The notes: a model not told the origin generated them from the sequence alone. Shown: positions 1-16,174, numbered from the stretch's first letter. The stretch is 64,000 nucleotides of DNA from an uncultured Clostridia bacterium (GCA_934746515.1 CAKVFH010000002.1:65576-129575), one strand, 5' to 3'. Program-made: numbers and translations.

Positions 1-3000
1 GCTTCTTGTTTAGACATCTTGCTAACATCAGGAATTTCGGTAAGTTTGCCGTTTATGTTTTCCTTTGCAATAATATTTTGTTTTGCAGTTGAAACTATCT
101 TTTCACCATCAGTTTTCATTTCTCTGATGATGTTATCAAATTCTGTCTGATTCAAGTTGTTAAGAACTTTTCTGTTACTTGCTTGAGTTCTGAAATCTAC
201 TGGCATGTCAGTTATCTTTTTGTTTATGTCTTTCAATATATCTGAACCAGAAGAAATAAATCTTGAATAGTTGTTAAACAACCAGTTGTTTCTGTCAATT
301 TCACTAATATTGTCAAGTTCAGAACCATGGTTTTCAGCTTTATACAAAGCGCCAGCCTTTCCTTTGAACTCGTCATTATTCCAAATGAGTGAAGCAACTG
401 ATCTCTGACGCTCAAGTCCACCGTTTGCAATCATGTTTCTGTTTGCAACAGCAATTGCTTGAGCATAAGTCATGCTTTCTGCTTCTCTGTAAAGCTCACG
501 ATTATTTTCTTTGAATGAACTAATAACTTGTTGTTTTCTTTCAACTTCAGTTTTTGCTTCTTTACCTACACCGCTCTTTTCAACAGATTGAATTTGATCC
601 TTTGCTTTTGAGCTTAAATAGCTGTAAATGCCTTCAACAATTGCCTGTTGTTTTTCAGCTTCGGTTAACAATTGAACTTTCCCTGCAGCAGTTGAAATAA
701 CTTTTTCTGCGTTTTCACTATGTGAAGTTTGTTCAAGTTCTTTCTTAACTCTTTCGTTTGAAATAAGCATGCCTTGTTGTTGTTCATAAACTTCAGCACT
801 TTGTTTTGTTGTTGTTTGTTTTTGAAGAAGTGAATAAGCTTGTGAATCAGAAAGTCCGAGTTTTGCAGCATTCATAGCAAACAATGTTTCTGTGATTTCT
901 GAAATAAGTCTTTCTTTCAAAGCTTCGCCAGCTGGTGAATTTAAGAATTTAGAAATCAAATCCATTGAATTTATGTCAACATTGTTATTTTTAAGGATTC
1001 TTGTTGCACCAGTATCTTGAGCTGCAAGTTTTGCAAGAAGTGCATTTTGTTCAGCAATTGAAAGTGTCGCAAAACCATTTTGAGAAGTCTCTTGTTTGAG
1101 TTCCGCAAGTTGTTCTGCTGGAACAGTTTGTCTTAAGAACTCGGCAACTTGACTAGCATTTGTAAATCCTTGAGCTGTTGAGTTTAATTTAGAAATATCT
1201 CTTTCACCTGACAAGTATTGTGCTTTAAGATTATCAATAGCGCGTTCAGCGGTGGTGTTTGTAACTCCGCCAGCTTGCACACCTGATGTATAACCCATTG
1301 CCTGCAATTGCTTTTCAAGTGAAGCCTTTGTTTTGTTTGCTTTTTGCAAAGCTTCAAGCCTTTGAACTTTTGATGATTCTTCTTCAGCAAGTGCTGCTGT
1401 AATATTGATATTTTCAGCCTGTGTTTTACCAGTTTCGTCAAATGTGAAGTATTTTTTATTAACAGCATTTAAGAGTTTTTGATCAACCTTGATGCCTGCA
1501 GAATTTAAAATTTCTTTGTTTTGACCATTGCTATCAATGTATGCCTTCATTGCTTTTTCAGCAGCAACATTTGTGGCTTTGTCGCCACCTTCTTTGTAGC
1601 CGAACGACTCTTTAACTTGATTATACATTTCCGTTTGTTTTGATTTTGCACCAATCAATTCTTGAGCATCTTCGTCTGTCAAATTGCCATAGGCTTCATA
1701 ATCTTCAACAATAGATTGAACTTCAGGCGACTTCGATTTAACGCTTCCGAGTTTCGTGATATTTTCAAGAACACGTTCGTTTACTTGTTTGCCCTTTTCG
1801 CCGCCAGAAATATAAGCATCAATATTCTTATCAGTTTGCTTTCCAAGTATCTTGGCTTTTGAGTAGCCAACAACCACCGAAACAGCTTCATCACTAGACC
1901 AGTCAATATTCTGAATCTTATCTTGCCATGCTTTGTTCTGTTCATTTGAAATAATTTCATCAATAACGGCAGTATAACCCACTGAATCGGTATTCACTTT
2001 GCCATTTTCATGCTCGATTCCAACCGCATCCAAAACGAGTTGATTTGTGATTATATCTTTTTCTTGCTCGTTTGAATTTTGCATTATGGTTTTAACAAAT
2101 TCTTCGTTAGACAAAGACTTATTTGTTGTTTGAGAAAGAGCTGATGTTCTTGAATCGAGTTCTTGTGAGCGACGGTTTGCAAGTTCCCCAAGTTTTTCTG
2201 AAATATATTGTGGACTTGTTTTCTTAACTTGCGAAATATTCATTCCAGCTTCACCAAACATTCTGTTTATAAACATTTGATGTTCAGTGTTGCCATTTAT
2301 AAATTTATCTAATTCTGTGTTAAATTCCAAAGATGCGGAATCTTTTGAAAGAACTTTTGATTGAAGCTCAGAAAGCAACTGCTGTTCTCTTGCAATGTAA
2401 GCTTTGTTATTAGCAATGCCAAGAGAAACAAAAGCTTGTCCAACTTTTTCGCTATCTGATTTTGCCCTTAATTCAAGTTGCGCAACACCAGCTTTCGCTT
2501 GTTCAAATTTTTCTTTCTCTTTAGCTGAAAGTGTCTTGCCTTCGAGACCAACTTCAAGCTTGCTTAATTCAAAGTTTGCTTCACTAAATGCACTTTGAGA
2601 TCTAAAACTTTGAGTTTGTAATTTAGAGTATTTTGCAAAATTATCTTTTTCTTGTTGTGAAATTTCATTTACCAAATCAATTGGAGTATTTTTCATGATA
2701 GATTCAACAACAACAGTGTCTGCAGTGTTGTTTCTGATTGATGCAGAACTAAATTCTTGAGTCTTGCCTAAAATCTTTGCTTTAGCGTAAGCCACAAGGA
2801 CTTCTTCTGGATTATAAAGCGCTTTTTGAGTTAAGTCTGTAAATAATCTTCCGTTTTCGCTGTTTGGATTTGAATTGATTTCAGCAATAAGCTTTTTCGC
2901 TTCGTCTGAATTTATATCAACATTTCCATTTTCACCAAGAATATTGAAATATTTAGCAACAATTTTATTAACAATTTCATCCTTGTTTTCGGTTGACGAA

Positions 3001-6000
3001 TTCATGAATGCTGAAACAAGTTCTTTGTCTCCAAAACTTGCTTCAGAAAGTTGTCTTTCAGTTATTTGTTCTTGCTCTGTTCTTCCGTAAAGATTGCCTG
3101 TTGAAATTGCAGCAATATTTGCAGACAAGTGAGCTGAATAATCCATTTGTTGAGCTTTTGACAACAAATCAAATGCTTGAACTTTGAATGATCCATTTCC
3201 AACATGTTTTGCAGTTACAGCGGAAAGCTCTTTTGCATAATCTTGAGTCTTGATTTGTCCAAGCATAGAATTGCTATCTTTAACACCCTGCTTGATTGAT
3301 TCAAGAATAACATCATCTTTTGTGTCGTCTGTAATACGATATTGCGACTTAAACTCTTTAAGCTTTTCTGGATTATTTTGAAGGTAGAGATAAATTGCTT
3401 CTGCATTGATATCAGCATTGTTTTGTGCTCTATCAAACACAGTTTGATGATAATCACTACCTGTAATATTTCCAGTTGTTTCGTTTTGATAGTTAAGTGT
3501 AAGTGCATAGTTTCCGGCAATTGCTCGAGTTGTGTTGTTTTTGTAACCTGTTCTAACAATTGAATCCACAACAGCATCACTTGAAATGTCTTGATGTGAA
3601 AGAAGTTGAGCAATAGCAACATTTACGCTATCGTCTTTTGCACCTTTTCCGCGCACACTCATATCGTTTACGGTAAAGCCTAACCCCTTTGCACCAATTG
3701 ATATGCCAAGGTTCAAACCAAGACCATTTCTATCTGTGCTATTTTCAATAAGTCTAAGTTGGTCTTTAATTGACATGTTTGCATTTTCTTCAAGTTTTTG
3801 ATTGAATGTGTCAAGTTGTTCACTTGTCATCATTGACTTGTAAATTGCAATTTTTTGTTCATCTGAAATCAAATAGTTTGCGGCATCCAAATTATTAGTG
3901 CCCGTTGCTGTAGCAAATGATGAAAGAACATCAGCTGCAATAACTCTTCCGCCTGTTGTTCCCGACAAGTTTGCAACAGCATTTCTGTAAGCATCATTTG
4001 TGTTTGTGACAAAGTTTGAATCAGAAATTGCTTGATTATTTGCAATTTGAGCAGCAACTGCCATACGGTTTGCACCTTCAAGCATCAAGCCGTTTGCAAC
4101 AGCTTCATCAATCATTTGTTTGATGTTTGCTGGAAGTTGTGCATTATTTATAATTTGTTGTGTTTGTTCAGTTGAAACCACTTGACCAACACTTGGTCCA
4201 GTTGGAGCGGCTGAATAAGATTGGTAACCACCAACTTGCTGATTTCCAGCGTAAGATTGTCCTCCAACACGAGCGCCTGCAACTCTAACCTTTCTATTTT
4301 TAACAAATAGAGCACCGCCAACACCTGCAGCACCAAGTCCTGCAGCAAGTCCAACGCCGCCTATGCCGAGAGTTCCGGCAGTAAATGCAGCTATTCCGGC
4401 ACCTGCTGCAACTTTAAGAGCATTGCCGCCCCATTGCTTGATATATTGTGCTTTTGTTTGATCGTCTGCTGCTCTATATTTTCTAACAAGTCCGACACCT
4501 TTCTTTACTAGGTATGAACCAGCTAGAATTCCGCCAGCAGCAAGCACTCCAGTATTTGGAATTAACATTGCAGCACCAGCAGCCGCGCCAATCAAACCTT
4601 TAGCAATAACGCTGTTTCTTGCTTTCTTGATAGCAATTTTTCCTGCAGCAGCATTTCTTTGCTCTGATGTTAGTTTCCCAGCCATTGCATTTTGAACAGA
4701 CTTGAGCTTGTCACCTTTAAGCTTTTGCTCATCTTTTGTGACTTTGCCATTTTCATCAATTCTATTGATTGTCTGAATGACATTGCCTTTCTTATCTATT
4801 TTAAGATTATCAAAAGTCTGTCCGTCAGCTGTTGTAATTTTGCCATCTTCAAAGAATTGTTCATTCAATTTGGTTTCATCACCACTTTTGATAACATTCT
4901 TCAAAATTTCATTGTTGCTATATTCTGAAACACCATCATTTTTCAGACTTGCTTGATAAACTTCAGCTTGTGCTGCACCAGTTGCAGTAGTTCCACTTGG
5001 AGCAGTGAAAGGTTGAGCAAAACTTGGATTTCTTTCCGAAATTTGAAGTTGCCCTGCAGAAGATCTTCTAACCCTTCTTCTGCTTCTAGCAAACATAACA
5101 CCGCCAACACCTGCAGCACCAAGTCCTGCAGCAAGTCCAACACCGCCCATGCCGAGAGTTCCGACAGTAAAGGCCGCAATTCCAGCACCTGCTGCAACTT
5201 TCATCACTCTTCCGCCAAATCTTCTAATCATTTGGGCTTTTGTTTGATCATTTGCAGCTCTGTAGCGTTTAATTGCACCAGCACTCTTCTTTACTAGGAA
5301 TGAACCAGCCAAAATTCCGCCGGCAGCAAGAACTCCAACACCTGGAATTAACATTGCAATGCCAGCAGCCGCACCAATCAAGCCTTTAGCAATAATGCTG
5401 TTTTTTGCTTTCTTGATAGCAATCTTTCCTGCAGCTGAATTTCTTTGTGCTGATGTCAATTTTCCAGCCATTGCATTTTGAACAGACTTAAGCTCTTCAC
5501 CTTTAAGTTTTTTGCCGTCTTTCATAATATTGCCATTCTTAATTTCAAGGCCTTCAATTGTCTGTCCGTTCGCTGTTGTTATCTTGCCATCTTCAAAGAA
5601 TTGTTCATTCAATTTGGTTTCATCACCATTCTTGATAACATTCTTTAATATTGCACTATTACTATATTCTGAAACTGCATCTTGACCTGATTCAGCATTT
5701 CTTGCATTTGTTTGAGCTGCTTCAGCTTGTGCTGCACCAGTTGCAGTAGATCCTGCAGGAGCTGTCAAAGGTTGTCTCATTGTAGGGTTCATTTGTGCTA
5801 TTTGTAATTGACCCCTGCTAGCTTTTCTTGCCTTTAATTTATTAGCGGCAAATAGAACACCTCCAACAGCAGCTGCACCAAGCAAGCCACCAGTAAGCAC
5901 TCCACCTGCAGCAACTTTAAGAGCATTGCCGCCCCATTTTTTGATATATTGTGCTTTAGTTTGATCGTCTGCTGCTCTATATTTTTTAATAAGTCCTGCA

Positions 6001-9000
6001 CCTTTCTTTGCTAGGAACGAGCCACCTGCAATTGCAAGTGCAATTCCTGGTCCAATACCTGGGATAGCCAGCGAAACTGCAGCTGCAACACCAGCCAAAG
6101 CCTTTGCACCGAGACCGAGCAATGCATTTCGTTTTGCAATCTTACCTTCTGCTGTAGTTCTCTGATTGTCAGTAAGTTTTCCTGCCATTGCAGTTTGAAC
6201 AGCTTTGAGCTTGTCACCTTTAAGCTTTTGCTCATCTTTTGTGACTTTGCCATTTTCATCAATTCTATTGATTGTCTGAATGACATTGCCTTTCTTATCT
6301 ATTTTAAGATTATCAAAAGTCTGTCCGTCAGCTGTTGTAATTTTGCCATCTTCAAAGAATTGTTCATTGAGTTCATCTACATTGCCATTCTTGATAACAT
6401 TCTTTAATATTGCATTATCACTATAAGCAGATGCTCCAGCTTGTGCACCATTACCAGTTCCACCAGTTTGTGCGCCTTGACTTGCATCACCTTCAGCATT
6501 TCTTGAGTTTGCTTGAGCCGCAGCACCAGCAGCTGCACCAGTTGCAGTAGATCCTGCAGGAGCTGTCAAAGGTTGTCTCATTGCAGGGTTCATTTGAGAT
6601 ATTTGAAGTTGTCCCCTGCTAGCTTTTCTTGCCTTTAATTTATTAGCGGCAAATAGAACACCACCAACAGCAGCTGCACCAAGCAAGCCACCAGTAAGCA
6701 CTCCACCTGCAGCAACTTTAAGAGCATTGCCGCCCCATTTTTTGATATATTGTGCTTTAGTTTGATCGTCTGCTGCTCTATATTTTTTAACAAGTCCAAC
6801 GCCTTTCTTTGCTAGGAACGAGCCACCTGCAATTGCAAGTGCAATTCCTGGTCCAATACCTGGGATAGCCAACGAAACTGCAGCTGCAACACCAGCCAAA
6901 GCCTTTGCACCGAGGCCGAGCAATGCATTTCTTTTTGCAATCTTACCTTCTGCTGTGGTTCTCTGATTGTCAGTCAACTTTCCTGCCATTGCAGATTTAA
7001 CAGTTTGGAGATCTTTACCTTTAAGCTCTTTGCCGTCTTGCATGATCTTGCCGTTCTTAATTTCAAGATTTTCGAGAGTTTGTCCGTTTGCTGTTGTAAG
7101 CTTGCCGTTTTCAAAGAATTGTTCATTTAATTTAGTTTCATCACCATTTTTGATAACATTCTTTAATATTGCATTATCACTATAAGCGGATGCTCCAGCT
7201 TGTGCACCATTACCAGTTCCACCAGTTTGTGCGCCTTGACTTGCATCACCTTCAGCATTTCTTGAGTTTGCTTGAGCCGCAGCACCAGCAGCTGCACCAG
7301 TTGCAGTAGATCCTGCAGGAGCTGTCAAAGGTTGTCTCATTGCAGGGTTCATTTGAGCTAATTGCTGTTGTCCCTTATTAGCTTTTCTTACCTTTAGTTT
7401 ATTTGCAGCAAAAATTGTTCCACCAACCAAAGCCGCACCAAGAACACCACCGCCAAACACGAAGCCCGCACCAACTTTAAGTGCATTTCCACCCCATTTT
7501 TTAATGAGTTTAGCTCTTGTTTGATCGTCTGCTGCTCTATATTGTTTAATGAGTCCAACACCTTTCTTTGCTAGGAACGAGCCACCTGCGATAAGCACAC
7601 CAGCAAGTGGGCCACCAACTGCGGTTGCAATTGCAGCAGCTCCCAGAACGCCAGCTTTTCCAGCAAGTCCAAGAAGTGCACCTTTCTTTGAGCTTTGATC
7701 AAAACCTAACAAGCCATTTGCAACTTGACCGAACTTGCTATTTGCAAACCTATCAGGCAATGCGCTTGCTTCTTGAATACCAAATTTAACTCCAGCTTTC
7801 AATTTAGCATTTCTAACAGTTTTGTCATATTTCTTGGTTTGAGCGTCAACATTTCCTTCAGCAATTTCTTGGCTCTTATCAGACATAACTTTCAAAGCTT
7901 CTTTTCTTACTGCAAGACCTGTTCTTCCTTTCTCTTTCTGTTCTGCCATATAAGCATCATAATACTTTAATGCTGACTTTCCAGCTGCAGTGTTTTCAAG
8001 TTCTGCTTTAATCTTATCAGCATCTCCGTCACTTGAAAGGTTATTTATCTTACTCTTTAATTTTTCAGCATTTGCATCTGTTTTTTGTTTATCAGCTTCA
8101 GCATCGTCAAGACCCTTTCTAGAAACTTTTGCAATTTCTTCATTTTGCATTTCTTCAAGAGTTTTCTTTTTCTGTTCAACCTGTTCTTCAGTTCCATCTT
8201 TTATTTCATTTTCAACAGTCTGACCATTTTGGTTATAAGTTTGATTTACTGTTTCACCTGAACCACTATCTTTGCTATTATCAGACATATTAGAAATATC
8301 AGGATTTTGCTTTATGATATTTTCAAGTTCTTCTCTAGCAATTAGACGAATATGTTCATCGTCTGTACCAATGCCGCCTTGATATTCTTCACCATTATTA
8401 TCAACTTCATTTTCACCTGAAGCATTTACTGGTTCTTCCTCGGCATTTTCTCTGTTATTATTTTGAGACTCTTCACCAGTTCGCTGATTTTCTATGTTTG
8501 TCCTAGATTGACCTTCTGGGTTTTCATCCAATGGGCTCTTTGTTTCTTCAGCGGTTTGCCCATCTTTCTTTTCTTCATTTTCGTCTTTACCATTATCACG
8601 GCTGTTGCCTGCAGGTCTTCCACCAGCTGGGCCACCAGGACCACCAGAAGGACCACCACCACCGCCATCGGCGCCAGCAGCAGCACCAGCAGTTGATTCA
8701 ACACCTTCTTTAAATTTCTCGCCACCTTTCTTAACAGCACCAACAACTTTTTTGGCACCATCTATAATGAACTGCGAACCAGGGATAACACCCGGAGCCA
8801 TTGAAACGGCTTCTTTAAAGCCGCTTTTGAGTGATTTTCCGGAAATCATATCCGTTGCACTCTTCATTGTGGTTTTTACATTATTCTTGACAGCTGCACC
8901 GGTTTTATCCAAGCTTTGACCTTTTCCAACAAGACCCTGAACAAATCCAGGAAGCTCATTGATTAAAGTAAATGCAACAAGCAAGAACAAAATGTAAATA

Positions 9001-12000
9001 AGCTCATTGAGCATATTTGCAGTAATTGGCAATTTTTTCAAGAAATAACTTCCAGAATTTGCAATTGCTTCTTCTGTGAAAATAGTGCTTGAAATTTCTC
9101 TAATTGGTGCAAGTAAAACGAAGAATACATTCAGTCCTATCAAAACACCATAGGTTGAAAGCACTTCACCCATAATTTTTTCACGCAAATCGCCAAATCT
9201 TTTGCCATCATCAATAGGCATTGTTGAAGCCGCAACAGGCATTGCGAGATAGTAAAGCGTAATCATATAGAAACGCTTAATTACACCCCAAAGTGCAGAG
9301 AACAAAACTTTGATAATCAGCACTGAAGCAACTAACAACAGAACATAGTTGATTCCACTTGCTGCATAGAATGTTTGAAGTTTTATGTTTTGGTCAAAGA
9401 AATAGTCAAATGTGATACCAGAAACATTGCCAGAATATTTAAAGGTGCTTGAAACAACTGGTGTATCGCTAACCTGTTGAACCACACCTGTTTTAAATTC
9501 AAATATTCCCTTCCACAAATAAATGTTGATTTCTACCAAATAACATCCAAATGTGTTTCTTGAATAATTTTCAATTTGATATCTAAAACATGAAACAGAG
9601 TCTGAAGTTTGCGCGTTTTCATAAAACTCAAGCATTCTAGCTTCCGCACTTTTGAGTTTAACTTCAAGAGTGTTATTAAAGATACCTTTGGCAGTTTCAC
9701 TATCACCCGCAGTTTGGAATGCAGGTCTTGGAGTCATCTTACCTTCATTTTGAATATAGTAATATCTTGTTCCCCAGTTTGAATCAAAATATTTTGTACT
9801 TTTTAAAACATCAAAATTAAGATTATTTAATTGTGCTAAAACTGATTTTGTAAATGTTCCATAAAAATCTTCAGTGTTTTCAAAAATTGAGAATGTATTT
9901 TTTAAAATACTCTTTGCTTCATCTCCAATTTTGTAATCTTTGATTGTATAAGATTTCAAAACCAAATTTTTAGCTTCTTTTGACGCACTTCCGTTCAAAT
10001 AGCATGGATACAAACCTTTACTTGAGTTGTTATAAGTTTTTGATGTATCAACTTGCAAAACTCCATTCACTTCTTTTGTTTTGAAGTAACTCGATGTTCC
10101 ACTTACATAAATAACATAACAAAAACCTTTTTCAGCAGATGCGAATTGATAATATTTAGTACCACCAACAGTTTCGGTTACGCCAGTCCATTTTAATTTG
10201 TATTCACTTTTAAATGGAGAAGATGAAGATAGCGATATAACAATCTCTGATTCCTGCAAATCACTTGTTGAGTCAACATTAACTTTATAAGTTTTTATTT
10301 CTAAATCTCTTTCACCTTCAGCATACAAACTTCCATTGTTGTAGGTTGCCAAATAATTGCTTAATGCTGAATTATAAACAAGTCTTGTGTAATAATCATA
10401 AGTATTTAAAATTAAATCATTGCCATTTTCTTTAACATCATAATAATAACCGCCGTCTGTATCAGTAACAATTGAATCTTTGCCGTTATCAACTGAAGAA
10501 GTATTCTTTAAATATGTTGGGTTGCCATATCTAGCATCAACTGTATTTGTGTCAAATGTACCTTTTGCCCAAACAACACCCTTGTATTCGCTTGCATAAT
10601 AAACTGACTTAAAACAATAGTTTTTATTATCAATTCTAAAATCTTTGCCGTTTACAAGTGGATAGAAATATTCACTTCCTTTCAAGCAAACAATATATCT
10701 TGAACCTGCAAGTTCATCACCTGTGTTGAATTTTGCAGTATAGATAATATCGTTATCGCTTTCAGCTGGCAATGTATAGTTTCCTGCATATTTTGTAAGG
10801 AATGTAAGAACCTTTGAATCATCTTTAAGTGTTGTTGCAACATTACTTACTTGATTTGTTGCAATATTGTAAGATGATTTACCTAAATTACCGATATTTG
10901 GATTTGTTGGATCAGCAACCGTTCCACTTAATTTATTTGAAATCCACTTTGTGTCAACGCAATAACTTGCATCATTATTGCTAGCATCTTTATATTTGTA
11001 GTTCCAATCAATAAGTGGACTTGTTGCATCCATAATGTAGAATGTCAGGTTGTTATCGCACATATAATCAATAACATCAGCCATAACTGAATATTCAGCT
11101 TTTGACTGAACGTTACCAAATTGACCACCATCGAAGTATGAAGCAACTGACTGTGAATTATACATTATTGCACCAGAATAATTTGCAGCGCCAAGATTAA
11201 AATCTGCGAGAGATTGAGTTCCATAACTTGAAATAGCTTGAGATAAGCTGATGCCTGGATTTACGTAGATGAGAGAATAGTTCCAACTATTTCTGCAAAC
11301 AGTCCTAACAGTTTCACTTCCTTGGTGAATATTGACACTAGAAAGATAGGTTCCGTCATATAAAGCACTAAAGTTTGATTCAAGATTCTTCAAGAGTTCC
11401 TTGCCAACATCATCCGACGCCCAACTTGCATTTTTAGTTAAAATTTCCGCACCTAGAACGCATTTTAGATAATAGTAAATGCCTTCAGCTTTATCTGAAG
11501 ATGCCATAACAAAATAATATTGTTTTTTGTCATCTTTATCTTTAGCTCTAAAACAGAAACCATTAAAGTTTGTAATATCCTTTGGAACCAGCGGATCAAA
11601 AATTGAATCAATGGTTATTTTTCTTGCATTTTTTATGACAGAAAGATAACTTTTTCGTCCAGTAACAACTCCGTCATTACAACTATAATCTTGATAATAA
11701 ACATGAGTTTCGTCATCAATACCATCACCGAAACAGATTTGTCTGTGAGCATCATCAAGATAGAATGTTACTTTATCTGAAGTTGGATAATAGGTGTCAT
11801 TATCAACATAGTGTCTGTATTTGTTTGCAGACTGTGCAGAAACTGAAAAGATTTTTCCACCAAAAGTGTCAGACATATCAACACCAACAGCTTTGATAAT
11901 TGAAGCTAAAATTGCATTTGATGAAACAATGCCCATAACAAGCAAAATTGGAAATACAATAACAAGAGCAATTGCTTTTGCTGAAGATCTGAAAATTGAT

Positions 12001-12446
12001 GCTTTTGAATTTCCTTTACTTCCATCACCAGTCATATAGTCCCATTCACTTTTGATGATTGCATAAATTGTGAAAATGATAAGCAAAACAACAAACACTG
12101 CAATCAAAGCTCTGAATACTTTTTGAACCGAGTCAGCATACAAGAATTTAAAAATCATATCTTCTGAAGTTGCTTCAGACAATTTTCTTGCACCATCTTT
12201 GCTGGAATCAAGCCAATAATCAAGACCAATCAGCTTTTGAATGAAATATTGCAGAAAGTCCATAAATGCAAGGAACCATCTACAAATGAAATAGAAAAAG
12301 TTGGCAAGCCCTTCAAGAATTTTTTGGAAAAAGTGTCCAAAAATATAGCTTCCCAAACCCTTTTCTGTTGATGGTAAAATCATCGACAAGATAAAGTTTG
12401 ATACAAATGAATAAATTTTGCTGACCAATGGCATAAATTCCCCCAT
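1..12446 (-). CDS. Giant polytopic membrane protein, >=4148 aa; C-terminus lies beyond the window edge (partial)
   Basis: Manual minus-strand translation from ATG 12446 (or ATG 12434, preceded by GGGGGA) reads MGEFMPLVSKIYSFVSNF... through ...LTEIPDVSKMSKQE at nt 3 with no stop (4148 full codons). It is missing from the ORF track only because it has no in-window stop. Every listed minus-strand ORF in 1-12446 sits in one other frame. Hydrophobic helices at ~12300-11890 and ~9370-8880, plus Gly/Ala-rich hydrophobic repeats at 7720-4290. Confidence 0.85.
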   Translation of the reverse strand, partial: MGEFMPLVSKIYSFVSNFILSMILPSTEKGLGSYIFGHFFQKILEGLANFFYFICRWFLAFMDFLQYFIQKLIGLDYWLDSSKDGARKLSEATSEDMIFKFLYADSVQKVFRALIAVFVVLLIIFTIYAIIKSEWDYMTGDGSKGNSKASIFRSSAKAIALVIVFPILLVMGIVSSNAILASIIKAVGVDMSDTFGGKIFSVSAQSANKYRHYVDNDTYYPTSDKVTFYLDDAHRQICFGDGIDDETHVYYQDYSCNDGVVTGRKSYLSVIKNARKITIDSIFDPLVPKDITNFNGFCFRAKDKDDKKQYYFVMASSDKAEGIYYYLKCVLGAEILTKNASWASDDVGKELLKNLESNFSALYDGTYLSSVNIHQGSETVRTVCRNSWNYSLIYVNPGISLSQAISSYGTQSLADFNLGAANYSGAIMYNSQSVASYFDGGQFGNVQSKAEYSVMADVIDYMCDNNLTFYIMDATSPLIDWNYKYKDASNNDASYCVDTKWISNKLSGTVADPTNPNIGNLGKSSYNIATNQVSNVATTLKDDSKVLTFLTKYAGNYTLPAESDNDIIYTAKFNTGDELAGSRYIVCLKGSEYFYPLVNGKDFRIDNKNYCFKSVYYASEYKGVVWAKGTFDTNTVDARYGNPTYLKNTSSVDNGKDSIVTDTDGGYYYDVKENGNDLILNTYDYYTRLVYNSALSNYLATYNNGSLYAEGERDLEIKTYKVNVDSTSDLQESEIVISLSSSSPFKSEYKLKWTGVTETVGGTKYYQFASAEKGFCYVIYVSGTSSYFKTKEVNGVLQVDTSKTYNNSSKGLYPCYLNGSASKEAKNLVLKSYTIKDYKIGDEAKSILKNTFSIFENTEDFYGTFTKSVLAQLNNLNFDVLKSTKYFDSNWGTRYYYIQNEGKMTPRPAFQTAGDSETAKGIFNNTLEVKLKSAEARMLEFYENAQTSDSVSCFRYQIENYSRNTFGCYLVEINIYLWKGIFEFKTGVVQQVSDTPVVSSTFKYSGNVSGITFDYFFDQNIKLQTFYAASGINYVLLLVASVLIIKVLFSALWGVIKRFYMITLYYLAMPVAASTMPIDDGKRFGDLREKIMGEVLSTYGVLIGLNVFFVLLAPIREISSTIFTEEAIANSGSYFLKKLPITANMLNELIYILFLLVAFTLINELPGFVQGLVGKGQSLDKTGAAVKNNVKTTMKSATDMISGKSLKSGFKEAVSMAPGVIPGSQFIIDGAKKVVGAVKKGGEKFKEGVESTAGAAAGADGGGGGPSGGPGGPAGGRPAGNSRDNGKDENEEKKDGQTAEETKSPLDENPEGQSRTNIENQRTGEESQNNNRENAEEEPVNASGENEVDNNGEEYQGGIGTDDEHIRLIAREELENIIKQNPDISNMSDNSKDSGSGETVNQTYNQNGQTVENEIKDGTEEQVEQKKKTLEEMQNEEIAKVSRKGLDDAEADKQKTDANAEKLKSKINNLSSDGDADKIKAELENTAAGKSALKYYDAYMAEQKEKGRTGLAVRKEALKVMSDKSQEIAEGNVDAQTKKYDKTVRNAKLKAGVKFGIQEASALPDRFANSKFGQVANGLLGFDQSSKKGALLGLAGKAGVLGAAAIATAVGGPLAGVLIAGGSFLAKKGVGLIKQYRAADDQTRAKLIKKWGGNALKVGAGFVFGGGVLGAALVGGTIFAANKLKVRKANKGQQQLAQMNPAMRQPLTAPAGSTATGAAAGAAAQANSRNAEGDASQGAQTGGTGNGAQAGASAYSDNAILKNVIKNGDETKLNEQFFENGKLTTANGQTLENLEIKNGKIMQDGKELKGKDLQTVKSAMAGKLTDNQRTTAEGKIAKRNALLGLGAKALAGVAAAVSLAIPGIGPGIALAIAGGSFLAKKGVGLVKKYRAADDQTKAQYIKKWGGNALKVAAGGVLTGGLLGAAAVGGVLFAANKLKARKASRGQLQISQMNPAMRQPLTAPAGSTATGAAAGAAAQANSRNAEGDASQGAQTGGTGNGAQAGASAYSDNAILKNVIKNGNVDELNEQFFEDGKITTADGQTFDNLKIDKKGNVIQTINRIDENGKVTKDEQKLKGDKLKAVQTAMAGKLTDNQRTTAEGKIAKRNALLGLGAKALAGVAAAVSLAIPGIGPGIALAIAGGSFLAKKGAGLIKKYRAADDQTKAQYIKKWGGNALKVAAGGVLTGGLLGAAAVGGVLFAANKLKARKASRGQLQIAQMNPTMRQPLTAPAGSTATGAAQAEAAQTNARNAESGQDAVSEYSNSAILKNVIKNGDETKLNEQFFEDGKITTANGQTIEGLEIKNGNIMKDGKKLKGEELKSVQNAMAGKLTSAQRNSAAGKIAIKKAKNSIIAKGLIGAAAGIAMLIPGVGVLAAGGILAGSFLVKKSAGAIKRYRAANDQTKAQMIRRFGGRVMKVAAGAGIAAFTVGTLGMGGVGLAAGLGAAGVGGVMFARSRRRVRRSSAGQLQISERNPSFAQPFTAPSGTTATGAAQAEVYQASLKNDGVSEYSNNEILKNVIKSGDETKLNEQFFEDGKITTADGQTFDNLKIDKKGNVIQTINRIDENGKVTKDEQKLKGDKLKSVQNAMAGKLTSEQRNAAAGKIAIKKARNSVIAKGLIGAAAGAAMLIPNTGVLAAGGILAGSYLVKKGVGLVRKYRAADDQTKAQYIKQWGGNALKVAAGAGIAAFTAGTLGIGGVGLAAGLGAAGVGGALFVKNRKVRVAGARVGGQSYAGNQQVGGYQSYSAAPTGPSVGQVVSTEQTQQIINNAQLPANIKQMIDEAVANGLMLEGANRMAVAAQIANNQAISDSNFVTNTNDAYRNAVANLSGTTGGRVIAADVLSSFATATGTNNLDAANYLISDEQKIAIYKSMMTSEQLDTFNQKLEENANMSIKDQLRLIENSTDRNGLGLNLGISIGAKGLGFTVNDMSVRGKGAKDDSVNVAIAQLLSHQDISSDAVVDSIVRTGYKNNTTRAIAGNYALTLNYQNETTGNITGSDYHQTVFDRAQNNADINAEAIYLYLQNNPEKLKEFKSQYRITDDTKDDVILESIKQGVKDSNSMLGQIKTQDYAKELSAVTAKHVGNGSFKVQAFDLLSKAQQMDYSAHLSANIAAISTGNLYGRTEQEQITERQLSEASFGDKELVSAFMNSSTENKDEIVNKIVAKYFNILGENGNVDINSDEAKKLIAEINSNPNSENGRLFTDLTQKALYNPEEVLVAYAKAKILGKTQEFSSASIRNNTADTVVVESIMKNTPIDLVNEISQQEKDNFAKYSKLQTQSFRSQSAFSEANFELSKLEVGLEGKTLSAKEKEKFEQAKAGVAQLELRAKSDSEKVGQAFVSLGIANNKAYIAREQQLLSELQSKVLSKDSASLEFNTELDKFINGNTEHQMFINRMFGEAGMNISQVKKTSPQYISEKLGELANRRSQELDSRTSALSQTTNKSLSNEEFVKTIMQNSNEQEKDIITNQLVLDAVGIEHENGKVNTDSVGYTAVIDEIISNEQNKAWQDKIQNIDWSSDEAVSVVVGYSKAKILGKQTDKNIDAYISGGEKGKQVNERVLENITKLGSVKSKSPEVQSIVEDYEAYGNLTDEDAQELIGAKSKQTEMYNQVKESFGYKEGGDKATNVAAEKAMKAYIDSNGQNKEILNSAGIKVDQKLLNAVNKKYFTFDETGKTQAENINITAALAEEESSKVQRLEALQKANKTKASLEKQLQAMGYTSGVQAGGVTNTTAERAIDNLKAQYLSGERDISKLNSTAQGFTNASQVAEFLRQTVPAEQLAELKQETSQNGFATLSIAEQNALLAKLAAQDTGATRILKNNNVDINSMDLISKFLNSPAGEALKERLISEITETLFAMNAAKLGLSDSQAYSLLQKQTTTKQSAEVYEQQQGMLISNERVKKELEQTSHSENAEKVISTAAGKVQLLTEAEKQQAIVEGIYSYLSSKAKDQIQSVEKSGVGKEAKTEVERKQQVISSFKENNRELYREAESMTYAQAIAVANRNMIANGGLERQRSVASLIWNNDEFKGKAGALYKAENHGSELDNISEIDRNNWLFNNYSRFISSGSDILKDINKKITDMPVDFRTQASNRKVLNNLNQTEFDNIIREMKTDGEKIVSTAKQNIIAKENINGKLTEIPDVSKMSKQE
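4290..7720. repeat. Intragenic tandem repeat array, ~5 modules with a 717-801 bp period, containing near-identical DNA blocks
   Basis: The AMAGKLT-encoding landmark recurs at ~4680, 5464, 6181 and 6982. Near-identical blocks: 4680-4870 vs 6183-6373, 5740-6193 vs 6541-6994, and 6391-6598 vs 7150-7357 (the last with about 1 mismatch). The duplicated antisense peptides in the ORF track (4692.. and 6195..) show the same thing. Confidence 0.9.
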
Positions 12447-12630
12447 TTATTTCTCTTGATTATTGTCTGCAATATTTGCAATATCTTTTGCATTTAGACA
12501 AAATCTGCGAAAAATATATATAATTATAATAAACCATAATTATTATAACATAAGGCATCAAAATATGACAAATAATTTACCGCAGATTTACAAATTATTT
12601 TATTATTTTTTTAGATTTTTTTTATTAAAA

Positions 12631-12662
12631 CAAATATCATACCCTTAAGGGTATGATATTTG
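12631..12662. promoter_or_regulatory. 32-bp perfect palindrome in the AT-rich leader of the giant ORF (operator or attenuator hairpin candidate)
   Basis: CAAATATCATACCCTT/AAGGGTATGATATTTG is perfectly self-complementary. It lies ~185 bp upstream of the ORF start. In minus orientation it is followed by TTTTAAT. Confidence 0.6.
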
Positions 12663-13047
12663 AAAATTTATTTTTATGATTTTATAATCATTTTTTACTA
12701 CTGTTTTTTAGCATTAAATTTTGTATTGATTTTTACCGCTCCGTTTCAGAATTTAAAATTAAAAATTTAAAAAAGTTTATACAATATAACCAAAACTTTG
12801 ACAGTTTTGATAATAAAAAACTCTTTCTAAACTGCAGCAAAATTGTAAAAATAACACGAAATAACCATAAAAATTACAATTAAAAATATCGGCAATTTGC
12901 ATAAAAAAGACTAAAATCACCAATCGAAAATATGTGTTTTTTTAATTTAATTTATTACTTAATTTTTCATTTTTAAGCTATATATCTTTACATTTCACAA
13001 CAACAATTTATCTAAAAAATCAAATAAGCAAAATTAACATAATAATA

Positions 13048-13083
13048 AGCAAAATAAAAAGAGAAGTTTCTTCACTTCTCTCT
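13048..13083 (-). terminator. Rho-independent terminator (second of two) after the pilin-like gene
   Basis: Stem GAGAAGT/ACTTCTC (13061-13080), followed on the minus strand by TTTTTATTTT. Confidence 0.65.
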
Positions 13084-13107
13084 TTATTGTTCTATTGATA
13101 AACTCAA

Positions 13108-13140
13108 AAAAATGCAAAATAAAAACACGCTTGCGCGTGT
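13108..13140 (-). terminator. Rho-independent terminator directly after the 13155 gene
   Basis: Stem ACACGC/GCGTGT (13125-13140), followed on the minus strand by TTTTATTTTG. It begins 15 nt after the stop codon. Confidence 0.7.
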
Positions 13141-13154
13141 CTTTATTTTTTTTC

Positions 13155-13487
13155 TTATTTAAGTTGGTCGCCAAACAATTTTTTAACAGCGCCACCATTA
13201 AGAACTGCAGCAATTACGGCTACGAAAACAATTGCAACCAAGAAACCAATAATGATATTGATAAGTTGTGTTTTTGCTTTCTTTTTGCCTTCATCATCTT
13301 CAGCTTTAGCAAAAGCAATACCTACTTTAACACCTAAAACTACGCCAAGAACAAGCAAGAAAGATGCAATTACAGGTAAAACTACGTTAACAATACCTTT
13401 GAATGTATTGTAAGCTGAATTGAAGATATCGCCTGTTGCTGAAATAACTACAGTATCATCAGCTAATAAAGAAAATAAATCTAACAT
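13155..13487 (-). CDS. Small 2-TM protein, VirB2/TrbC-type pilin-like (paralog 1)
   Basis: 110 aa. Two hydrophobic helices are joined by the charged loop GIAFAKAEDDEGKKKAKTQL, then IIIGFLVAIVFVAV. This is the TM / short charged loop / Gly-containing TM pattern of Gram-positive TrbC/VirB2-like proteins. RBS GGAGAAA precedes the ATG. Confidence 0.45.
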   Translation of the reverse strand: MLDLFSLLADDTVVISATGDIFNSAYNTFKGIVNVVLPVIASFLLVLGVVLGVKVGIAFAKAEDDEGKKKAKTQLINIIIGFLVAIVFVAVIAAVLNGGAVKKLFGDQLK

Positions 13488-13597
13488 GTTGAATTTCTCC
13501 TTTTTCTAATTTTATCTATTCGACTGACCTAATACTAGCACACTAAAAATCATTTGGCAAACAAATTTTAGTGATTTTCTTAATTTTTTTAAATTTT

Positions 13598-13897
13598 TTA
13601 GCCATCAATAAATCTTGCGAGTGGTTCCCTAATTGCATAAATTACCGCAATCAACACAATAACGGTTATTGCACCTATGCAAAAATTAACCAAAACTTTG
13701 TGAAGATTATCCTTTTCGCCTGGATCTTCCGCCTTTGCATACTTAACACCCAAGAAAATTCCCCAAAAGACGCTCAAGAGTAAACAAACAGAAATAGCGT
13801 AAGGCCCAACGAGCGAAATTCCATCATAAAGTGGAGATACAACTTCATCGCCTTCACCTAAAATAAATGCTCTAAATTGTGATAAAAATTCAAACAT
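13598..13897 (-). CDS. Small 2-TM protein, VirB2/TrbC-type pilin-like (paralog 2)
   Basis: 99 aa with the same layout as the 13155 gene. The loop GVKYAKAEDPGEKDNLHKVL is followed by CIGAITVIVLIAV. The shared AKAED motif marks the two as paralogs. Confidence 0.45.
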   Translation of the reverse strand: MFEFLSQFRAFILGEGDEVVSPLYDGISLVGPYAISVCLLLSVFWGIFLGVKYAKAEDPGEKDNLHKVLVNFCIGAITVIVLIAVIYAIREPLARFIDG

Positions 13898-14120
13898 AAA
13901 TAATCACCCCATCAAATCAATTCTATCTTAACAAAATTATGGCTCATTCGCAAGCAAATTTTGTTTGAATTTATTTTTAATTTTATTTTTGACCTATTTT
14001 TTGATAATTTTTAATAGTTAGGCCTCAGAAATTGAATTCTGGAATTGCGAGCTGTACAATTTTCTCAAAATTTAATTAAAGATAAATATTTAATAAATAA
14101 AAATTATTATATAAAATTAT

Positions 14121-14149
14121 TTGCGTGATTTTTTTTAATTTGGTATAAT
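14121..14149 (+). promoter_or_regulatory. Sigma-A-type promoter for the coupling-protein operon
   Basis: TTGCGT (14121-14126), 17-nt spacer ending in TGG (extended -10 TGn), TATAAT (14144-14149). RBS GGGAGA lies before ATG 14191. Confidence 0.55.
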
Positions 14150-14190
14150 TCATCATGTAAAATATTACTCTTTTATTTTGGGAGAAAATT

Positions 14191-16149: not shown

Positions 16150-16174
16150 AAATTAAATTACATTGGAGATAAGT

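Follow-up and report, generated by a model that had tools for sequence, protein, structure and literature searches.

Mosaic Gly/Ala-rich modules in the C-terminal extension of a giant VirB6-like protein from an uncultured Clostridia bacterium

Extended VirB6 proteins and the setting of the giant gene

Extended VirB6 proteins are defined by at least five hydrophobic helices together with large central or C-terminal hydrophilic domains, and the function of the extensions in Rickettsiales is unknown (PMC12857230). VirB6-4 of Anaplasma phagocytophilum joins a polytopic VirB6-type domain to a huge extension (4,322-9,935 aa), whose large repeats depend sharply on the strain in number and pattern and led the first assembly of the genome astray (PMC3556328, PMC7648143). 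In the Mycoplasma ICE, the VirB6-like component is taken to be CDS16, and transposon mutants show that ICEA transfer requires it (PMC12857230, PMC6030558).

The stretch of DNA analysed here, referred to as the window, comprises 64,000 nucleotides from an uncultured Clostridia bacterium and contains most of one giant gene (Table 1). The open reading frame runs past the window start by another 1,297 nt; in full it occupies positions 64279-78021 of contig C2 and encodes 4,580 aa with 0 stops. A hydropathy scan places the strong hydrophobic helices of the N-terminal domain at aa 113-131, 158-176, 1035-1053, 1095-1113 and 1144-1173. The protein thus has the layout by which extended VirB6 proteins are defined, namely five helices, a central loop of ~850 aa that splits them and an extension of 3,400 aa past the N-terminal membrane domain. 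The C2 locus holds three paralogues of 4,580, 3,690 and 1,016 aa.

The giant protein scores 95.3 bits (cutoff 90) against NCBIfam NF045848, the MMCAP2_0566 family conjugal transfer protein, over aa 1012-1180 and a second stretch, and 51.5 bits against the equivalog model NF045889, below the cutoff of 70; it is therefore treated as a family member and not as an equivalog. Its sequence places it among the extended VirB6-like membrane proteins of T4SSs, in the Mycoplasma-ICE CDS16 family; membership in the VirB6 superfamily rests on the NCBIfam family and the literature assignment. Searching the whole protein against Pfam at E<=0.1 returns nothing beyond two weak, unrelated matches, and no TrbL/VirB6. 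The C-terminal region is 30-41% identical to orthologues of other species, gives 0 matches in Pfam and PDB, and has two weak, unrelated matches only in PHROG.

Gene order at the locus is ICE-like, with pilin-like genes, the giant gene and, two genes downstream of it, a VirB4-like ATPase gene (VirB4_plasma, 566 bits, below the cutoff of 590); a VirD4-like gene lies opposite and scores 251 bits against the NCBIfam CD1115 family (cutoff 250). This arrangement resembles that of Mycoplasma ICE CDS16 (MMCAP2_0566/Mbov_0396 family), with pilin-like Mbov_0395, the CDS16-like gene, VirB4 (Mbov_0397 family) two genes on and VirD4 nearby. The profiles of that family cover ~310-320 positions, whereas the helices here are split by the long loop and followed by the giant extension. 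All 21 genomes of the genus contain the locus, which therefore looks like a vertically inherited part of the chromosome and not like a mobile ICE. The N-terminal membrane domain is found in 20/20 other genus genomes and in most of the family.

The protein shares with Anaplasma VirB6-4 and other extended VirB6 proteins of Rickettsiales a membrane domain with a giant extension, tandem paralogues and strain-variable repeats. It differs in the character of the repeats, which in Anaplasma are hydrophilic and acidic, with a pI of about 4, whereas those described here combine a folded alpha/beta domain with two Gly/Ala-zipper segments that are uncharged and have basic residues on either side. The host system is also distinct, being a Firmicute-type, Mycoplasma-ICE-like minimal T4SS, and no sequence similarity to VirB6-4 is detectable.

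Table 1. Positions in the window of the giant gene, its parts and modules, and the neighbouring genes
Feature	Position	Strand	Basis or detail
Giant VirB6-like gene	3-12446	minus	ORF call; 4,148 codons inside window
Polytopic membrane domain, N-terminal, aa 1-1200	8847-12446	minus	hydropathy scan
Spacer, Gly/Pro-rich, acidic, coiled-coil-like, aa 1201-1585	7692-8846	minus	translation
M1	6933-7691	minus	T1 7356-7682, L1 7185-7355, short S1 unit 6924-7184
M2	6132-6932	minus	T2 6597-6923, L2 6426-6596, long S2 unit 6123-6425
M3	5415-6131	minus	T3 5796-6122, L3 5667-5795, short S3 unit 5406-5666
M4	4629-5414	minus	T4 5037-5405 (second hydrophobic segment 37 aa), L4 4923-5036, long S4 unit 4620-4922
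M5	4149-4628	minus	only T5 (4260-4619), then distinct Gln/Gly/Tyr linker into conserved C-terminal region
Start of C-terminal region, mostly helical, aa 2767-4580	3-4148	minus	conserved across species orthologues
Pilin-like two-TM gene, Mbov_0395 family, upstream of giant gene	13155-13487	minus	NCBIfam NF045849 E=1.3e-9; Pfam T4SS_pilin E=9.5e-5
Second, more divergent pilin-like paralogue	13598-13897	minus	NCBIfam NF045849 E=7e-5; alignment
VirD4/TraG-type coupling ATPase, divergent transcription	14191-16149	plus	Pfam T4SS-DNA_transf E=9e-45

Anatomy of the module array

Five repeat modules lie between positions 4149 and 7691 of the window, all within the one uninterrupted reading frame. Each contains a T unit, in which two Gly/Ala-rich uncharged segments are separated by a conserved basic helix connector, YRAADDQTKAQYIKKWGGNALK. 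An earlier note on this DNA described about five modules of three parts each; five T units are indeed present, but the low-complexity linker (L) and the soluble domain (S) of ~90-100 aa accompany only four of them, M5 having no soluble part. The motif YRAA[DN]DQT accordingly anchors 5 copies (aa 1636, 1889, 2156, 2395 and 2657) and NEQFFE anchors 4 (aa 1774, 2027, 2280 and 2528). Module periods are 759, 801, 717 and 786 nt, in agreement with a repeat search; Tandem Repeats Finder is silent on the array because these periods exceed its 500-nt limit.

Two further descriptions of the module parts hold in part. The connector, which had been called a conserved amphipathic stretch, is conserved and basic but clearly amphipathic in its C-terminal half only. 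Short and long forms of the soluble domain both exist, but the long form, which carries a duplicated K-x-G-N/K-V/I beta-hairpin, adds a net 14 aa and not 26 aa. Gly makes up 15% of the repeat region and 6% of the remaining protein; for Ala the figures are 18% and 8%. GC3 is equal in the repeats and in the remainder of the giant gene, so the codon usage of the repeats is native. No known family is matched by the module sequence.

Sequence exchange and copy number

The patchy identity between modules that the earlier note had reported is reproduced by measurement. Positions 6391-6598 and 7150-7357 differ at 1 of 208 nt (99.5% identical), 5740-6193 and 6541-6994 are 96.0% identical (~95% had been claimed), and 4680-4870 is 96.9% identical to 6183-6373; randomly paired 200-nt stretches taken from non-repeat parts of this gene are 27.5% identical on average and 42.5% at most. 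Over columns 0-370 M2 tracks M3, after which it tracks M1 (Fisher p=2e-22); from column 641 onward it tracks M4 (Fisher p=8e-23). M2 is therefore a three-way mosaic that is M3-like, M1-like and M4-like in succession. An M2-like patch is also found inside the M5 connector (p=3e-7).

Comparison with other strains of the species adds a second line of evidence. Although the flanks of the array in strain S2 are 98.8-99.3% identical to those of this genome, L1 is only 87.7% identical to its strain S2 orthologue and 99.4% identical to L2 of its own genome, so L1 has been recently overwritten by conversion. Divergence from strain S2 is 3.1% in the repeats and 1.3% outside them, and at 53/109 orthologous differences both alleles are also found in paralogous units, where ~20% would be expected by point mutation (p=1.4e-11). 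T3 and T2 are 96.3% identical, and their between-strain site patterns, which are mixed and partly complementary, suggest exchange between these two units. Strain S3 contains a chimeric T unit and has no spacer from ~aa 1312, the deletion extending through T1 and L1 to ~aa 1754.

The number of modules varies as well. This genome has 5 T and 4 S units, whereas a third strain of its species (flanks 97.4% identical) has only 3 of each, with every S unit in the short form; orthologues in related species have 1-6 T units. Within the genus, T units are restricted to 3/21 species, the orthologous protein being present without them in 18/21. The sharp mosaic breakpoints, the homogenisation of L1 with L2 and the strain differences bear out the proposals of ongoing intragenic recombination or gene conversion and of copy-number variation, and they show that modules swap sequence by homologous recombination, through short-patch gene conversion together with unequal crossing-over that changes their number. 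The word 'cassettes', which had been applied to the modules, is too strong, as silent donor copies are not found elsewhere in the genome. The pattern resembles the concerted evolution known from intragenic repeats of bacterial surface and secretion proteins, with patchy conversion, unequal recombination and repeats of several hundred bp, but this unit stands out by its unusual length (717-801 bp) and its composite make-up, the T, L and S parts having separate histories. Paralogue comparisons give dN/dS values of 0.14-0.61 and dS values that reach 1.4, which makes the modules old and subject to purifying selection; dN/dS stays <1 throughout, with no sign of diversifying selection.

Proposed membrane hairpins and the alternatives

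The hydrophobic segments of the T units are runs of 24-37 aa with no charged or amide residues, except for the first segment of T5, which is broken by one Asn and has a longest uncharged run of 16 aa. Each segment flank examined carries a net charge of +2 to +6, apart from the upstream side of that interrupted segment. There are 6-10 small-xxx-small zipper motifs per T unit. A 16-row alignment from four species (this one, G002 and those of P0005 and P0011) shows an invariant Gly-Gly at the centre of the second segment and a nearly invariant central Gly in the first; segment length and Lys-Lys boundaries are conserved across the same species. The helix breaks of an AlphaFold2 model fall exactly at these central glycines, at a low confidence (T-unit pLDDT 30-55), and the S4 domain is modelled at pLDDT 83-89. 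Mean Kyte-Doolittle values are 1.5-2.2 for the T segments and 2.0-3.2 for the N-terminal TM helices.

Profile searches give no family for these segments. Isolated T units match none of the Pfam glycine-zipper families (Gly-zipper_Omp, Gly-zipper_YMGG, Rick_17kDa_Anti) even at E<=10; the T unit, the whole module and the spacer give no PHROG match at all, and no tape-measure profile of PHROG or Pfam is matched. The best match in a PDB profile search, ATP synthase subunit c, is non-significant (E=0.32). The VirB2-type/Mbov_0395 pilin-like genes of the locus, considered as a possible origin of the T unit, show no profile-profile similarity to it (hhalign probability 0.7%). The segments resemble glycine-zipper helices and hydrophobic hairpins such as those of ATP synthase subunit c and pore-forming colicins in their small-xxx-small runs, uncharged lengths of 24-37 aa and central turn. 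They match none of these significantly by sequence or profile, and differ in that the putative hairpins are repeated ten times in one giant polypeptide.

The reading preferred here, at a probability of roughly 0.6, is that five ancient coding modules form a genuine array in the C-terminal extension of an extended VirB6-like channel or platform protein, that they recombine with one another and that their T units act as hairpins at the membrane. Judging from their sequence features, we infer that the Gly-zipper segments are membrane hairpins. Each T unit would form two marginally hydrophobic Gly/Ala-zipper helical hairpins around the conserved central Gly or Gly-Gly turn and, all flanks being strongly basic, these would in all likelihood enter the membrane of the producer from its cytoplasmic side without crossing it. 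There they may pack helix to helix and tether the long extension repeatedly beside the VirB6-like core, with the conserved basic connectors and the S domains, which are small alpha/beta folds, as spaced interaction sites. The second segment of M1-M3, at only 24 aa, could equally be a single membrane-spanning helix, in which case alternate soluble units and the C-terminal region would lie outside the cell.

It is unlikely that the modules are real but act in the membrane of a partner cell, the extension or its fragments being exported via the T4SS-like machine and the cationic hairpins inserting post-translationally as a pore or conduit. Analogies for such insertion are the hydrophobic hairpins of pore-forming colicins, glycine-zipper toxins and the hydrophobic segments of phage tape-measure proteins. 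The segments are only marginally hydrophobic beside the protein's own TM helices, which would suit this role, as would the basic residues on all their sides and the density of zipper motifs; the middle of the protein also evolves fast and varies in copy number while VirB4 is 80-91% identical across species, and no function is assigned to the VirB6 extensions of other systems (PMC12857230). Against it, toxin, tape-measure or bacteriocin homology was not found, cleavage motifs and an immunity gene were not identified, the modules show no dN/dS above 1, and they are covalently attached to a polytopic membrane domain.

Quite unlikely is a reading in which the Gly/Ala-rich segments stay out of the membrane as flexible or elastomeric spacers, so that the array would be a length-adjustable stalk or ruler, on the surface or in the cytoplasm, with repeat number tuning its reach. 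The Gly and Ala enrichment, the low AlphaFold2 confidence for T units and the variation in module number among strains and species are all consistent with it, and the hydrophilic repeats of Anaplasma VirB6-4 are also length-variable (PMC3556328). Packed helices fit better than disordered spacers, however, given the geometry conserved in four species, the long runs free of charged and amide residues and the purifying selection on the T units (dN/dS 0.17-0.61).

Further still from being favoured, and to be regarded as very doubtful, is a scenario in which the gut Clostridia of this family, with reduced genomes of about 1.1 Mb, retain on their chromosome a Mycoplasma-ICE-like T4SS for contact between cells, and the VirB6-like giant of one subclade has gained a new, recombining array of cationic glycine-zipper hairpins. 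The hairpins would insert into the partner membrane and build or widen a conduit, with module number and sequence being shuffled to match different partners.

The warning of assembly trouble was justified for other assemblies, in which the P0016 contig begins inside L3 and the G006 orthologue has N runs within its repeats. This assembly contains exact repeats of 169, 164 and 127 nt, and strain S3 one of 242 nt. Even so, a short-read artefact, with near-identical segments collapsed, expanded or mis-joined, is highly improbable as the source of the array or of its copy number and order, because the reading frame is open across all modules and the layout of 5 T and 4 S units recurs in the same order in an independent 1.169-Mb MEGAHIT k141 contig (about 3% sequence differences, longest internal exact repeat 140 nt) and also in a third protein variant on four contigs. 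Since the 169-nt repeat does not interleave with the 164-nt one, the assembly graph allows one order only, and nothing but extra tandem traversals could hide; as both repeats exceed typical short-read length, the module number here is a minimum.

The machine to which the giant protein belongs is a chromosomally conserved T4SS-like system of uncultured gut Clostridia. The modules are not essential to it, since most species of the genus do without T units. Under the preferred reading of membrane hairpins in a recombining array, the number of modules would set the number of anchors and binding sites on the extension.

Anatomy of the repeat array

The repeat modules lie within a giant gene for an extended VirB6-like protein, which in the full genome contig C2 (where the window is 65576-129575) is 4,580 aa long with zero stops. 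Its longest ORF begins MGEFMPLVSK, and the database entries for the protein and its relatives begin MPLVSK, four codons later. YRAA[DN]DQT occurs five times and NEQFFE four times in the translation, and a motif-anchored segment alignment resolves four full modules and one partial module (M1-M5).

Features of the giant gene, its locus and its relatives (window coordinates unless another locus is named)
Feature	Position	Strand	Basis or remark
T4SS-like locus	1-18304 and contig C2 45500-65575
Giant gene	3-12446	-	open past window start
Giant gene start	12435-12446	-	longest ORF
Acidic/coiled-coil spacer	7692-8510		aa ~1312-1585
Repeats	4149-7691
M1	6933-7691	-	motif-anchored alignment
M2	6132-6932	-	motif-anchored alignment
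M3	5415-6131	-	motif-anchored alignment
M4	4629-5414	-	motif-anchored alignment
M5	4149-4628	-	motif-anchored alignment; partial module
ORF antisense to T4	4953-5297	+	114 aa, TTG start
713-aa protein	16163-18304	+
781-aa protein	locus L002, 11892-14237	-
N runs in G006 orthologue	locus L023, 14400-15640
G002 orthologue	locus L026, G002:C46:38500-54538		5,151 aa

Every module opens with a T unit, in which an uncharged Gly/Ala-rich segment of ~30 aa is followed by a connector, a second such segment (24 aa in M1-M3, 37 aa in M4-M5) and a basic tail. The connector, KKG.GL.KKYRAADDQTKAQYIKKWGGNALK, is conserved and basic; it is the stretch described as amphipathic in the earlier note, a description that holds in part only. 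In M1-M4 the T unit is followed by a Gln/Ala/Gly/Thr/Pro linker (L) and then a soluble unit (S). About five modules of three parts each had been proposed, and five T units are indeed present, but the soluble units number four rather than five. The proposed short and long soluble forms both exist, at 87 aa (M1, M3) and 101 aa (M2, M4), with the long form being more exactly a net 14-aa hairpin duplication. Three near-identities pointed out between modules were checked directly and hold, with 1 difference over 208 nt, 96.0% identity over 454 nt and 96.9% over 191 nt; random 200-nt pairs from the giant gene average 27.5%. The repeat-module observation as a whole is confirmed.

The repeats have a GC content of 0.43, compared with 0.35 over the remainder of the gene, at equal GC3 (0.22 versus 0.24). 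The rise is due to amino-acid composition, specifically Gly/Ala codons, and with GC3 unchanged a foreign origin of the repeats was rejected. The plus-strand ORF antisense to T4 was judged spurious, being without support, and most likely results incidentally from Gly/Ala codon composition.

An array of this kind could in principle be created by short-read assembly. Exact repeats reach 169 and 164 nt in this assembly and 242 nt in the same-species strain S3, and the expected assembly trouble is visible in the contig of the related protein P0016, which begins within L3, and in N runs inside the repeats of the closest-species orthologue (G006). An artefactual array is nonetheless unlikely. The reading frame is unbroken through the modules, and in a second same-species strain, S2, the longest internal exact repeat (140 nt) is shorter than the assembler k of 141 while the module order is identical. 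A third variant, P0013, present on four contigs, also has the identical layout, with its M3 connector differing by one residue (Lys for Gln, matching M2). Extra tandem traversals could hide in the exact repeats, and the copy numbers are therefore minima. In the G006 orthologue, two N runs fall exactly in repeated segments and the gene seems split into ORFs of 1,489, 364 and 1,724 aa; this split is an assembly or masking gap and not natural.

Mosaic structure and strain variation

Mosaicism was evaluated using sliding-window identities and ordered informative-site patterns (Fisher test at the best breakpoint), and the two approaches agree. M2 tracks M3 across the T unit and then M1 from the linker (p=2e-22), before shifting to M4 at the long soluble insert (p=8e-23). 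M3 shifts from M2-like to M4-like (p=4e-24), and M5 has M4-like ends and an M2-like connector patch (p=3e-7). The patchy pattern described in the earlier note resolves into sharp breakpoints, and the T, L and S parts therefore differ in history. Paralogue dS is 0.9-1.4 in the oldest pairs and about 0.02-0.1 in homogenised patches, with dN/dS of 0.14-0.61 throughout. The modules are old, constrained protein units that have been locally homogenised of late, and not a recent simple duplication.

A protein search provided two full-length relatives from the same species, and the DNA of both was compared with that of this genome; a scan of JGI metagenome contigs for more strains found none. Strain S2 (P0003, 4,572 aa, on a 1,169,107-bp MEGAHIT contig with flanks 98.8-99.3% identical to those here) has the same five T and four S units as this genome, with the short/long pattern unchanged. 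Strain S3 (P0004, 3,839 aa, on a 327-kb scaffold with flanks 97.4% identical to those here) has three of each in the order S-T-S-T-S-T, all S units being short, which supports the suggested variation in module number between strains. Residues ~1312-1754 are absent from strain S3, which removes most of the acidic/coiled-coil spacer along with T1 and L1 and leaves a Gly/Pro-rich hinge abutting a soluble unit directly. The species can thus do without this spacer.

Segment matrices show that L1 of this genome is 99.4% identical to its own L2 and 97.1% to L2 of strain S2, but only 87.7% to its positional orthologue, L1 of strain S2. In this genome's lineage, L2 overwrote L1 after the split from strain S2. 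T2 of this genome is 99.1% identical to T3 of strain S2 versus 97.2% to T2 of that strain, and the T2 and T3 sites of the two strains show mixed, in part complementary patterns. Within strain S3 the three S units share 90-97% identity with one another, and none of them exceeds 88.5% against those of this genome or strain S2, a case of concerted evolution. The first T unit of strain S3 is T2-like with a 14-site T1-like patch.

This genome and strain S2 diverge by 3.1% in the repeats versus 1.3% elsewhere in the gene, with a peak at L1-S1 of 29 differences per 300 nt. At 53 of the 109 orthologous module differences, both alleles are found in paralogous units, compared with ~20% expected from random mutation (p=1.4e-11). 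Together with the breakpoints and the overwriting of L1, these shared-allele sites support the earlier proposal of ongoing recombination or gene conversion. All module matches in the genome fall within the giant gene, with none outside it. Exchange is thus purely intragenic, and a donor-cassette system is ruled out because the genome has no silent copies elsewhere.

Distribution and predicted structure of the module

An exhaustive HMMER scan with M2 as the query returned only 8 matches at E<=1e-3 among 1.84 billion representative proteins, which makes the module a new family. All five large matches have N- or C-terminal regions in common with the giant protein; of the three short ones, two are module-region fragments (237 aa, 93 aa) and the third is a 647-aa protein without a T-unit profile match. 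Sequence or profile searches of Pfam, NCBIfam, PHROGs and the PDB found no significant match to a T unit, an S unit, a whole module or the C-terminal region. The T-unit profile detects five units in this genome, five plus one partial in the orthologue of sister species G002, at least two in that of G006, three each in the related proteins P0005 and P0008, one in P0011 and none in the other 18 species of the genus. The module originated in one subclade. It always follows the VirB6-like core and precedes the conserved C-terminal region.

The T units of the G002 orthologue lie ~370 aa apart within ORF aa 1634-3276. Ahead of its first full T unit, acidic AENVENAENAE-type repeats replace the NEQFFE soluble domain, and the T unit may therefore pair with different spacers.

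AlphaFold2, run with a 16-row module alignment, models the S unit of M4 confidently (pLDDT 83-89) as a domain in which two helices precede four strands and two more helices follow. Compared with the PDB by Foldseek, the module model had no significant neighbour, and with a best E of only 0.16, an Sm-like or PWWP small-barrel fold was not accepted. The T unit is modelled at low confidence (pLDDT 30-55). Both runs break the helix of the first segment at its IPG.G turn, and the T-unit run also breaks that of the second at its central Gly-Gly. Across the 16 rows, which cover four species, this Gly-Gly is invariant, and a Gly of the first-segment turn and the Lys after the first segment are nearly so. 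Flanks of the hydrophobic segments carry a net charge of +2 to +6, except at the interrupted first segment of T5. Kyte-Doolittle means of the T units are marginal at 1.5-2.2 versus 2.0-3.2 in the N-terminal membrane helices.

Under the positive-inside rule, basic flanks stay on the cytoplasmic side, and the C-terminal part of A. tumefaciens VirB6 reportedly begins there as well. If the extension here starts in the same way, the simplest reading is that the T units would be helical hairpins entering the membrane from the cytoplasmic face, and a membrane-hairpin function is plausible. Alternatively, the 24-aa second segments of M1-M3 could span the membrane, which would place successive soluble units on alternating sides. 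Derivation of the T units from the neighbouring pilin-like genes is ruled out (hhalign probability 0.7%).

The T4SS-like locus and its giant VirB6-like protein

A Pfam search of the giant protein found nothing. In NCBIfam, its membrane helices match the MMCAP2_0566 family conjugal transfer protein (95.3 bits, cutoff 90) and, below the cutoff of 70, the Mbov_0396 ICE transmembrane protein (51.5 bits). The two small genes upstream match the Mbov_0395 pilin-like family (E=1.3e-9 and 7e-5), the 922-aa protein encoded two genes downstream matches VirB4_plasma (Mbov_0397; 566 bits, cutoff 590) and a divergent gene matches VirD4 of the CD1115 family (251 bits, cutoff 250). CDS16 of Mycoplasma ICEs, the family of the giant protein, is needed for transfer (PMC6030558) and is taken as the VirB6-like component (PMC12857230).

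The locus comprises three VirB6-like paralogues (here 4,580, 3,690 and 1,016 aa), two pilin-like genes, VirB4 and VirD4, and is present in 21/21 genomes of the genus. The 713-aa and 781-aa proteins have no Pfam or NCBIfam family match, and in all related contigs retrieved the gene for the latter comes immediately downstream of the giant gene. The N-terminal domain of the giant protein is found in 20/20 other genomes of the genus and most of the family. The length of the orthologous giants varies from about 3,300 to more than 7,400 aa. Across species, VirB4 retains 77-91% identity, whereas the giants share just 31-57% with this protein in the N-terminal domain and can scarcely be aligned in their middle parts. 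The host genomes are MAGs of about 1.1 Mb, recovered from uncultured Clostridia of the human, mouse and ruminant gut. In these bacteria the locus resembles a core machine passed on vertically and not a mobile ICE.

The closest analogue is VirB6-4 of Anaplasma phagocytophilum, which joins a VirB6 core to an extension of 4,322-9,935 aa. Its large repeats vary markedly from strain to strain, and the first genome assembly got them wrong (PMC3556328, PMC7648143). Tandem VirB6 paralogues occur in Rickettsiales as they do here. Unlike the VirB6-4 system, the machine here is Firmicute-type and Mycoplasma-ICE-like, the repeat is a hydrophobic Gly-zipper with a folded domain, and there is no sequence similarity to VirB6-4. 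Strain-variable repeats in a giant VirB6 thus have precedent, while the repeat family is new. With the giant gene, a second and independent case of a VirB6-like giant whose repeats vary by strain comes from outside Rickettsiales. The repeat region is a strain-identity marker and a known hazard in short-read assembly of these uncultured gut Clostridia. The role of extended-VirB6 extensions is an acknowledged open question (PMC12857230). The parts of this repeat, namely two putative Gly-zipper hairpins, the conserved basic helix and a domain of ~90 aa that can fold, are separately expressible and testable, making the giant gene a tractable handle on these unexplained VirB6-like extensions.
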